From Patescibacteria group bacterium (GTDB lineage: Bacteria; Patescibacteriota; Minisyncoccia; Phycocordibacterales; Phycocordibacteraceae): a DNA stretch of 64,000 nt. Location: positions 726,240 to 790,239 of the forward strand of contig JAIELV010000001.1 in NCBI GenBank assembly GCA_019752595.1, given 5' to 3'. Made by a program: the position numbers and the translations under genes. This document shows positions 10,165 to 10,214 of this stretch, piece by piece. The notes under the pieces were generated by a model that had not been told where the DNA came from, made no database searches, and saw only the letters and a program-made list of their open reading frames with translations. How positions within the stretch are numbered: the stretch's first letter is position 1; every line of letters begins with the position of its first letter.

Positions 10165-10214
10165 TCCTCGGCTCGAAAATGAAAATTTTTTCATTTTGCT
10201 CGCTCTACGTCGCC
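10165..10214. repeat. terminator-proximal stem-loop element, copy B (TCCTCGGCTCG-aaaatgaaaa-ttttt-tcattttg-CTCGCTCTACGTCG)
   Basis: near-identical flanks to copy C at 61523-61578 with a compensatory stem; related copies at 611-656 and 44660-44708. Confidence 0.6.

Follow-up and report, generated by a model that had tools for sequence, protein, structure and literature searches.

What is the small stem-loop that recurs in four spacers of a Patescibacteria group bacterium, with a stem whose sequence changes while its pairing is kept? The question is raised by a stretch of 64,000 nucleotides (assembly GCA_019752595.1, contig JAIELV010000001.1, positions 726,240 to 790,239 of the forward strand), called the window in the following, in which an earlier note had described four copies, A to D. 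These copies are members of one large family of small structured repeats of the Patescibacteria, or candidate phyla radiation (CPR). The family is spread over the whole phylum and has two helices under structural selection around a conserved loop. Its units, including a hairpin upstream of the core, were gained, lost or exchanged between close relatives, and their orientation was independent of that of the neighbouring genes. The reading we favor, and hold to be probable though by no means assured, is that of an interspersed repeat family resembling repetitive extragenic palindromes (REPs), bacterial interspersed mosaic elements (BIMEs) or miniature inverted-repeat transposable elements (MITEs): non-autonomous, with a loop read by a trans-acting protein and with copies kept in the spacers at the 3' ends of genes.

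The window contained exactly four copies, all intergenic and on the + strand (A at 609-661, B at 10164-10216, D at 44657-44712 and C at 61522-61580), which corresponds to about one copy per 16 kb. The pattern GCTCG-N15-45-CTCRCTC matched these four sites alone, all on the + strand; 0.44 matches were expected and none of 100 shuffles reached four. A covariance model of the four copies (R1), the construction of which the earlier note had suggested, was applied to the complete window without filters and returned A to D with 58-68 bits and nothing else above 15 bits, the score of the best other match. With another model, derived from 40 members of the family (R3), the copies scored 60-73 bits and the best other match in the window 13 bits. 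Reading of the sequence bore out the positions of the four copies and the identical flanks of B and C. The change of stem between these two, with pairing kept, was found as well, the stem base differing by one compensatory A-T/G-C change. The G-U wobble described for copy A was present as U-G, and the same position was U-A in the related contig L004.

The inner hairpin of the element, P2, with 9-13 bp across the family, was the sole helix of the earlier description. An outer helix of 5-7 bp, P1, not described there, closes the whole element and differs in sequence in every copy. It encloses a large, pyrimidine-rich, conserved internal loop with UCCUCGGCUCG as 5' strand and CUCGCUCUACGUC as 3' strand, inside which P2 stands. 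This loop measures 11-13 x 12-14 nt, with 25 nt conserved. Its strands carry YTCG repeats and are near-invariant within two main types: CTCCTCGGCTCGG ... CTCGCTCTACGTCG in type 1 (with TCCTCGGCTCG and CTCGCTCTACGTC) and TGCGCTCGCTCGG ... CTCRCTCGCTTGA in type 2. The terminal loop of P2 varied freely, in length as in sequence. For each of the four window units, both strands were predicted to fold to the same architecture, with z values of −2.5 to −7.3.

The core spans about 60 nt and the unit 76-170 nt. In every window copy an extra hairpin lay upstream of P1 and a TAA or TAG downstream of it. Over the family, the 45 nt upstream of P1 folded better than control windows (−10.6 versus −6.6 kcal/mol, p = 3e-8), which makes the upstream hairpin, though free in its sequence, a general constituent of the unit. 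TA directly followed P1 in 35 of 40 diverse copies and in 111 of 119 family members (TAA in 98, TAG in 12), with a dinucleotide background of 5.5%; TAA or TAG stood 3' of P1 in 92% of the copies. The proposal that the element always follows a terminator was not supported, since the link arises from the upstream hairpin being part of the repeat unit itself. Likewise, a hairpin indeed precedes each copy, but a spacing of 15-35 nt from a strong terminator could not be maintained for all four: in B and C the hairpin abuts P1 at 0-3 nt, in D it has no T-tract, and A has a second hairpin between the terminator and the element. An intrinsic terminator, defined as a G+C-rich hairpin followed by a T-tract, was formed by the upstream hairpins of B and C only, whereas the core and the upstream hairpin of D fail this definition. 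At copies B and C this hairpin, which would terminate transcription in both directions, was the sole terminator-like structure between the flanking genes. At copy D the real terminator of the 5S gene is located at about 44548-44579.

The idea that it is the secondary structure that is selected was overwhelmingly supported once relatives were added. In a set of 81 matches selected by their loops, P2 had 77 different sequences and all 81 formed hairpins, GGATGCCACACCAATA/TATTGGTGTGGCATC and GCCCAGCCCTAGTTTT/AAAACTAGGGCTGGG being examples. In the model alignment of 87 copies, P2 was 93.7% paired, with double-sided changes at nine of nine pairs. Its covariation score was 0.428, compared with 0.138 after shuffling (none of 500 shuffles reached the true score) and at most 0.145 with slid partners. 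P1 was fully paired in 30 of the 40 diverse copies when the two true registers were considered and in 0-4 in eight control registers. There were 30 distinct P1 helices, TTAGC/GCTAA being the commonest, and only 34 of 870 cross-pairings between them were complementary. The loop strands stayed fixed while P1 and P2 covaried.

Conserved loops between freely covarying helices are the classical signature of a functional RNA. A multi-copy structured RNA, which might be a small RNA, a self-cleaving ribozyme or a signal for protein binding or for processing, with the loop as its active part and the helices as scaffold, is thus an explanation to be taken seriously, even if we think it rather less than probable. 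It is also favored by the G-U pairs of the window copies, which occur on the + strand only, and by the purine-rich antisense strand, which folds slightly more stably. The census of P2 pairs, however, yielded 34 G-U pairs and 50 A-C mismatches beside 2211 Watson-Crick pairs, a strand test by wobbles showing no clear preference (p = 0.10). G-U pairs were no better tolerated than A-C mismatches, unlike in typical functional RNAs. Furthermore, the freedom of the P2 terminal loop leaves no conserved tertiary contact at this place, and a promoter-like motif of the element's own was not evident on reading the flanks.

The distribution of the family was determined by a scan of one genome per species with the pattern AAATGAAA-N2-25-TTTCRTTTYNCTCRCTC. 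At least 118 stretches were found, where we estimated about 1 by chance. Nearly all came from metagenome-assembled genomes (MAGs) of Patescibacteria, among them Vogel-, Nomura-, Falkow-, Yonath-, Lloyd-, Portnoy-, Kaiser-, Morani- and Shapirobacteria, Saccharibacteria and others. The few matches labelled Gammaproteobacteria or Bdellovibrionales included some that share flanks with Moranbacteria loci, so these labels are doubtful. A pattern of the loop strands only, CTCGGYTCR-N18-48-CTCRCTCTACGTCG, gave at least 120 stretches from metagenomes; among 2.9 million viral contigs, the pattern of the genome scan had no match. Only rRNAs matched Rfam 15 in the window at the gathering threshold, and nothing matched on the element in six copy-bearing loci at E <= 5, which speaks against the functional RNA and agrees with the earlier failure to name an RNA family. 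Literature searches on CPR repeats, MITEs, REPs and REP-associated tyrosine transposases (RAYTs) yielded no description of the element either. Of the categories put forward before, the small structured repeat family was the right one.

In a Vogelbacteria MAG, near-identical copies formed tandem arrays with periods of 76 nt and 159 nt. Array sites were located at L064:1765-1977, L050:1-362, L075:4483-4620 and L089:6476-6640 (numbers preceded by L designate contigs or loci), as 76-nt tandem cores or 159-nt mosaics. In the mosaics the core alternates with a CCCTCGGGG...CCCGAGG hairpin, a CTTGCTTCGCT tract and a GC-rich hairpin with a CAGAGC-type loop. Arrays as such are compatible with a functional RNA, since ribozyme families, too, are found as multiple copies in either orientation and in arrays. 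A separate observation concerned Moranbacteria-like loci (L005, L028, L047 and L049), where purine-rich CGAGGACGAGCGAGC-like tracts on both sides of the copy are complementary to the loop strands and could pair with them.

Comparison with relatives showed that whole units come and go. Four contigs with identical NusG were available for locus A: L002 and L004 carry copy A, L001 and L003 do not. The two pairs differ by a clean block of 78 nt, which comprises the small hairpin plus the complete core and has TA at each junction; all four contigs retain an intact native terminator. This indel holds both strands of P1, which ruled out an origin of P1 by insertion into a pre-existing palindrome. At locus B, argS and the convergent gene have directly adjoining stop codons in the closest relative, L126, whose arginyl-tRNA synthetase (ArgRS) is 89% identical; the entire 85-nt spacer, terminator-like hairpin included, is missing there. 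Look-ups of exact proteins retrieved no contig on record for three window proteins, and the contigs for a fourth do not reach copy B. The absence of units at the same loci in close relatives is a further point against a functional RNA.

Locus C behaved differently. Two relatives with a 98% identical decarboxylase, L248 and L249, have a core identical to that of the window, P1 included, but their upstream hairpin is a different one of 28 nt and the sequence diverges right after GGCTGTAAA. In two relatives at 85-86% identity, this position gave no R1 match; one of them has a different, CTCG-rich composite palindrome there, described below. The AbiV/HEPN and NUDIX genes that follow copy C in the window (61594-62791) are replaced by unrelated small open reading frames (ORFs) in L248:3259-3850; a strain-variable defence islet begins at the 3' end of copy C. 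At the position of copy C, L250:1740-1880 carries a composite palindrome of about 130 nt, with a CTCG-rich arm and its purine-rich complement within a 15-bp outer inverted repeat, which may represent two loop-like modules head-to-head.

An identical core with its upstream side replaced and with synteny lost after it would agree with a recombination site, att-like or a cassette boundary, at which a site-specific recombinase exchanges accessory genes. Copy B, which borders a region of small ORFs, would suit this idea, as would the shape of the element, which with its outer helix, unpaired spacer and variable terminal hairpin recalls a folded attC site. At loci A and B, however, we found simple presence or absence with synteny kept on both sides. 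Moreover, no recombinase was found in the window, the R3 search of the window revealed no cassette series bounded by further copies, and the outer helix, with its commonest form TTAGC/GCTAA, does not fit the R-box consensus of attC. We therefore consider a recombination site unlikely.

Locus D provided arguments for a function in RNA. From the 23S gene end on, contig L009 and the window are syntenic, and L009 keeps a D-type copy after the 5S gene, so that this position is occupied in two lineages, with compensatory changes in the hairpins; an assembly gap falls into the P2 loop of the D-type copy in L009. On the same contig (reverse strand, 137-255) an extra copy, enclosed by a 10-bp outer helix, lies in sense orientation within the 23S-5S spacer, where it is necessarily transcribed. 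An insertion of 1.5 kb with a further copy separates the D-type copy from the next gene (L009, reverse strand, 597-2171).

Crude ORF maps, drawn around 176 copies, served to compare their orientation with that of transcription. Of the copies in co-directional spacers, 29 were sense and 37 antisense (p = 0.39); 27 copies lay in convergent spacers, an approximately two-fold enrichment per spacer, and 17 in divergent ones. Orientation versus flanking transcription was hence random, contrary to what a functional RNA would lead one to expect. Clustering of 1637 ORFs from the loci (1.6 Mb) gave housekeeping families only and no recurrent neighbour gene.

These data bear on the main idea of the earlier note, a cis-acting signal for the downstream gene at operon boundaries, such as a regulator in the 5' untranslated region (5'-UTR), a processing site or a cruciform in a promoter. 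The window taken alone would be in line with it, since all four copies are sense to the flanking genes and three precede a start codon by 11-83 nt. The distances of 20-80 nt given before for these three had to be adjusted to about 26 nt for secE (ATG at 688), 11-14 nt for the ORF at 61594 and 64-83 nt for the ORF at 44795. Copy A lies in the probable leader of secE, because a promoter-like site overlaps the upstream terminator. This sigma-70-like promoter, TTGACT-17-TAGTAT, ends where the pre-secE terminator starts (window 528-587), an arrangement kept in the relatives that lack the repeat; transcripts from there would begin inside the terminator stem and so escape the terminator. For the family, however, random orientation and the lack of a common downstream gene do not fit such a signal. 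The same genes occur without the element in close relatives, and ahead of copy B lies the 3' end of a convergent gene. We regard a signal of this kind as very improbable. The cruciform variant is itself unlikely, since the rRNA leaders have ordinary TTGACA/TATAAT-like boxes and the element has nothing similar; for the same reason a promoter was rejected.

Two further candidates were discarded. The 3' loop CGCTCTAC recalls boxA of phage lambda, but true boxA-like sequences are found elsewhere, in the leaders of the 16S and 23S genes, where the element is absent; an rRNA antitermination boxA/boxB is therefore not at hand. These leader sequences, TCTTTGACAACTAAA and GTTCGTTGACAATTTAAG (57700-57760 and 40540-40580), each follow a terminator-like hairpin and probably act as antitermination signals. 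A tRNA remnant was rejected as well, since the element has no cloverleaf and there is no tRNA or tmRNA gene in the 64 kb.

Taken together, the indels, the arrays, the random orientation and the G-U census fit a DNA-level repeat that must fold, as REPs and BIMEs do. In the interspersed-repeat reading that we prefer, the unit would spread or turn over as a non-autonomous repeat in the manner of REPs and BIMEs or of MITEs. Its folded form, single-stranded DNA or possibly RNA, would offer the YTCG-rich strands of the loop to a trans-acting protein with its gene elsewhere in the genome. Copies would persist mainly in the 3' spacers of genes, where their hairpins may be tolerated or even useful as two-way terminators or stabilisers of 3' ends.

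A number of observations weigh against this reading. Terminal inverted repeats are missing from the element, and in units A and B one end is not an inverted copy of the other. The apparent duplication of TA comes from the one clean empty site at locus A, and TA could instead be a conserved part of the element. The copies of this genome differ mostly in their stems, lacking the near-identity expected of recent transposition. The loop sequences are conserved across very deep lineages, and copy D and its counterpart in L009, with compensatory hairpin changes between them, have been kept next to flanking genes only about 74% identical; this recalls purifying selection on a function more than a purely selfish repeat. 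Among the recurrent neighbours in the 1.6 Mb of loci no enzyme of mobilisation turned up, nor did the loci hold any element split by cargo, and the 64-kb window likewise had no transposase, integrase, reverse transcriptase or HUH protein. The orientation statistics, finally, depend on crude ORF maps.

Some of these points may be a hint that the element is the substrate or partner of a machinery shared by the phylum. It could constitute a new class of structured RNA, ribozyme or protein-recruiting, or a folded single-stranded DNA site for a new mobilising or recombining enzyme, with the YTCG-rich loop strands being recognised or catalytic. Such a machinery is conceivable because the loops are conserved beyond the need of a drifting selfish repeat, the helices are kept at orthologous sites, and no known family or enzyme fits. 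We put this forward as a speculation of rather low probability.

Among known systems, the family comes closest to REPs and BIMEs, extragenic sequences tagged by GTAG or CGTC, in which a 4-nt tag lies beside the stem of a single imperfect palindrome of 20-40 bp and G-T pairs are reported to be frequent (Di Nocera et al. 2013, PMC3733652). The present element is likewise small, extragenic and multi-copy, combines a hairpin with conserved unpaired motifs, and falls into sub-families with complementary stem changes. Unidirectional and convergent spacers downstream of genes are preferred in both (here 66 co-directional, 27 convergent and 17 divergent), and both can occur in clusters and in mosaic arrays with other modules. 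The type-1 copies B and C hold CTACGTCG, which includes CGTC and the complement of GTAG, at 8 nt from the foot of P2. This tag-like motif is, however, missing in the type-2 copies and in copies A and D. Two nested helices around a conserved loop of 25 nt, together with a separate upstream hairpin, do not make a single palindrome; G-T pairs were not enriched; the hosts are Patescibacteria; and no RAYT (Y1/HUH) gene was found in the window or among the recurrent neighbours of the family loci. The element thus works most like a REP or BIME, but fails the REP definition on its architecture.

Bacterial MITEs that duplicate TA are represented by Correia/NEMIS in Neisseria and RUP in Streptococcus pneumoniae. 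Units of about 80-150 bp, intergenic location, presence or absence between strains (empty sites at A and B) and possible effects on termination and transcripts are shared with them, and so is TA at both junctions of the one clean empty site, TA(R) being also conserved 3' of the 111 copies mentioned above. The ends of MITEs are conserved, whereas in the element, devoid of terminal inverted repeats, it is the paired parts that vary. The element is moreover phylum-wide rather than limited to one genus, and no related autonomous insertion sequence was found, as judged from the lack of cargo-split elements in the 1.6 Mb and of transposase neighbours.

The attC sites of integrons have their conserved letters in the outer helix, in R-boxes RYYYAAC/GTTRRRY. 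They share with the element the folding of a single strand, a structure better conserved than the sequence, an outer helix, an unpaired centre and a terminal hairpin of variable length. The element, by contrast, has a free outer helix (30 sequences) and a conserved loop, with no integrase in the window and no cassette array.

The units of TIGR (tandem interspaced guide RNA) systems, bridge RNAs of IS110 and box C/D guides have variable guides with the motifs box C (CCA) and box D (UG) at their sides and lie in arrays beside a Tas or transposase gene; TIGR systems occur in CPR bacteria too (Faure et al. 2025, PMC12045711). A stem, two unpaired strands of 8-14 nt and a second stem-loop are common to them and the element. 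The unpaired strands of the latter are, however, conserved, its copies lie scattered, and a Nop-domain gene was not seen in their vicinity. Conserved loops and the lack of arrays beside a Tas gene ruled out a guide of the TIGR or bridge-RNA kind. In palindrome-associated transposable elements (PATEs) of the IS200/IS605 type, a Y1 transposase recognises hairpins that stand sub-terminally at both ends, and insertion takes place 3' of a fixed tetranucleotide with no duplication. In the element, hairpins lie near both ends of the unit, and its final 5 nt form pairs with a stretch 5' of the core.

The window has a G+C content of 47.8% and mostly housekeeping genes. The nearest homologues of its ArgRS and arginine decarboxylase are from Parcubacteria/Paceibacterota and other Patescibacteria. 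Copy A lies between an unnamed ORF and secE-nusG-rplK, copy B between argS and a convergent small ORF, where its unit occupies the entire spacer, copy C between the arginine decarboxylase gene and the AbiV/HEPN gene, with NUDIX next, and copy D downstream of the 5S gene. The coordinates of all parts are listed in the table.

Table. Parts of the four copies in the window; paired segments are joined by "with".
Feature	Position	Strand	Remarks
Copy A, native intrinsic terminator upstream	557..583	+	outside the repeat; kept in L001 and L003, which lack the element
Copy A, whole unit	585..662	+	equals the 78-nt indel; TAG follows at 663-665
Copy A, upstream hairpin	586-602	+	
Copy A, P1	604-608 with 658-662	+	CTTGT/ACAAG
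Copy A, 5' loop	609-619	+	
Copy A, P2	620-631 with 635-646	+	
Copy A, 3' loop	647-657	+	
Copy B, whole unit	10134..10219	+	upstream hairpin, core and TAA; fold −23.5 kcal/mol, z = −4.1
Copy B, upstream hairpin	10134..10158	+	AAAAACGC...GCGTTTTT; terminator-like on both strands
Copy B, P1 5' strand	10159..10163	+	CTGGC; pairs with GCCAG 10212-10216
Copy B, 5' internal-loop strand	10164..10175	+	ATCCTCGGCTCG; identical in copy C; conserved family-wide
Copy B, P2	10176..10197	+	AAAATGAAAA/TTTTCATTTT; covaries across the family
Copy B, 3' internal-loop strand	10198..10211	+	GCTCGCTCTACGTC; conserved
Copy B, P1 3' strand and TAA	10212..10219	+	GCCAG and conserved TAA
Copy C, whole unit	61487..61583	+	fold −36.7 kcal/mol, z = −5.0
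Copy C, upstream hairpin	61487-61513	+	
Copy C, P1	61517-61521 with 61576-61580	+	CAGCC/GGCTG
Copy C, 5' loop	61522-61532	+	
Copy C, P2	61533-61542 with 61553-61562	+	
Copy C, 3' loop	61563-61575	+	
Copy C, TAA	61581-61583	+	
Copy D, extended unit	44587..44731	+	fold −59.8 kcal/mol, z = −4.0
Copy D, outer helix	44587-44595 with 44723-44731	+	CTTGTTCTG with CAGAACAAG; encloses both hairpins and the core
Copy D, enclosed hairpins	44606-44621; 44623-44652	+	second one without T-tract
Copy D, core	44652..44715	+	
Copy D, P1	44652-44656 with 44708-44712	+	CCGTC/GATGG, one G-U; alternative register UCAUCG/CGAUGG in the predicted fold
Copy D, P2	44668-44696	+	GGCAAT...ATTGCC
Copy D, 3' loop	44697-44707	+	CTCGCTCACTC
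Copy D, TAG	44713-44715	+	

Some features of the window concerned other genes. The 23S gene (40706-44327) measures 3622 nt, compared with 2925 positions in the model, and hence holds about 700 nt of insertions; ORFs inside it had no Pfam match. Together with the 5S gene (44426-44531) it lies 13 kb upstream of the 16S gene (57960-59419) and is not linked to it. A class I tRNA synthetase of the isoleucyl type (12248-15739) has a His_Phos_1 (histidine-phosphatase) domain inserted mid-protein, and the same fusion was present in Patescibacteria at L103:2393-5887.

Genomes of Patescibacteria are tiny and streamlined and are thought to be poor in repeats. A structured repeat found across the whole phylum would be a new landmark of their genome biology. 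The element marks places at which close strains differ by gain, loss or module exchange, and at some gene ends it provides the sole terminator-like hairpins. Its conserved loop would point to a trans-acting partner that recognises it. With the covariance model, such spacers could be annotated in CPR MAGs by the thousand, where it may prevent the copies from being misread as gene-specific riboregulators.

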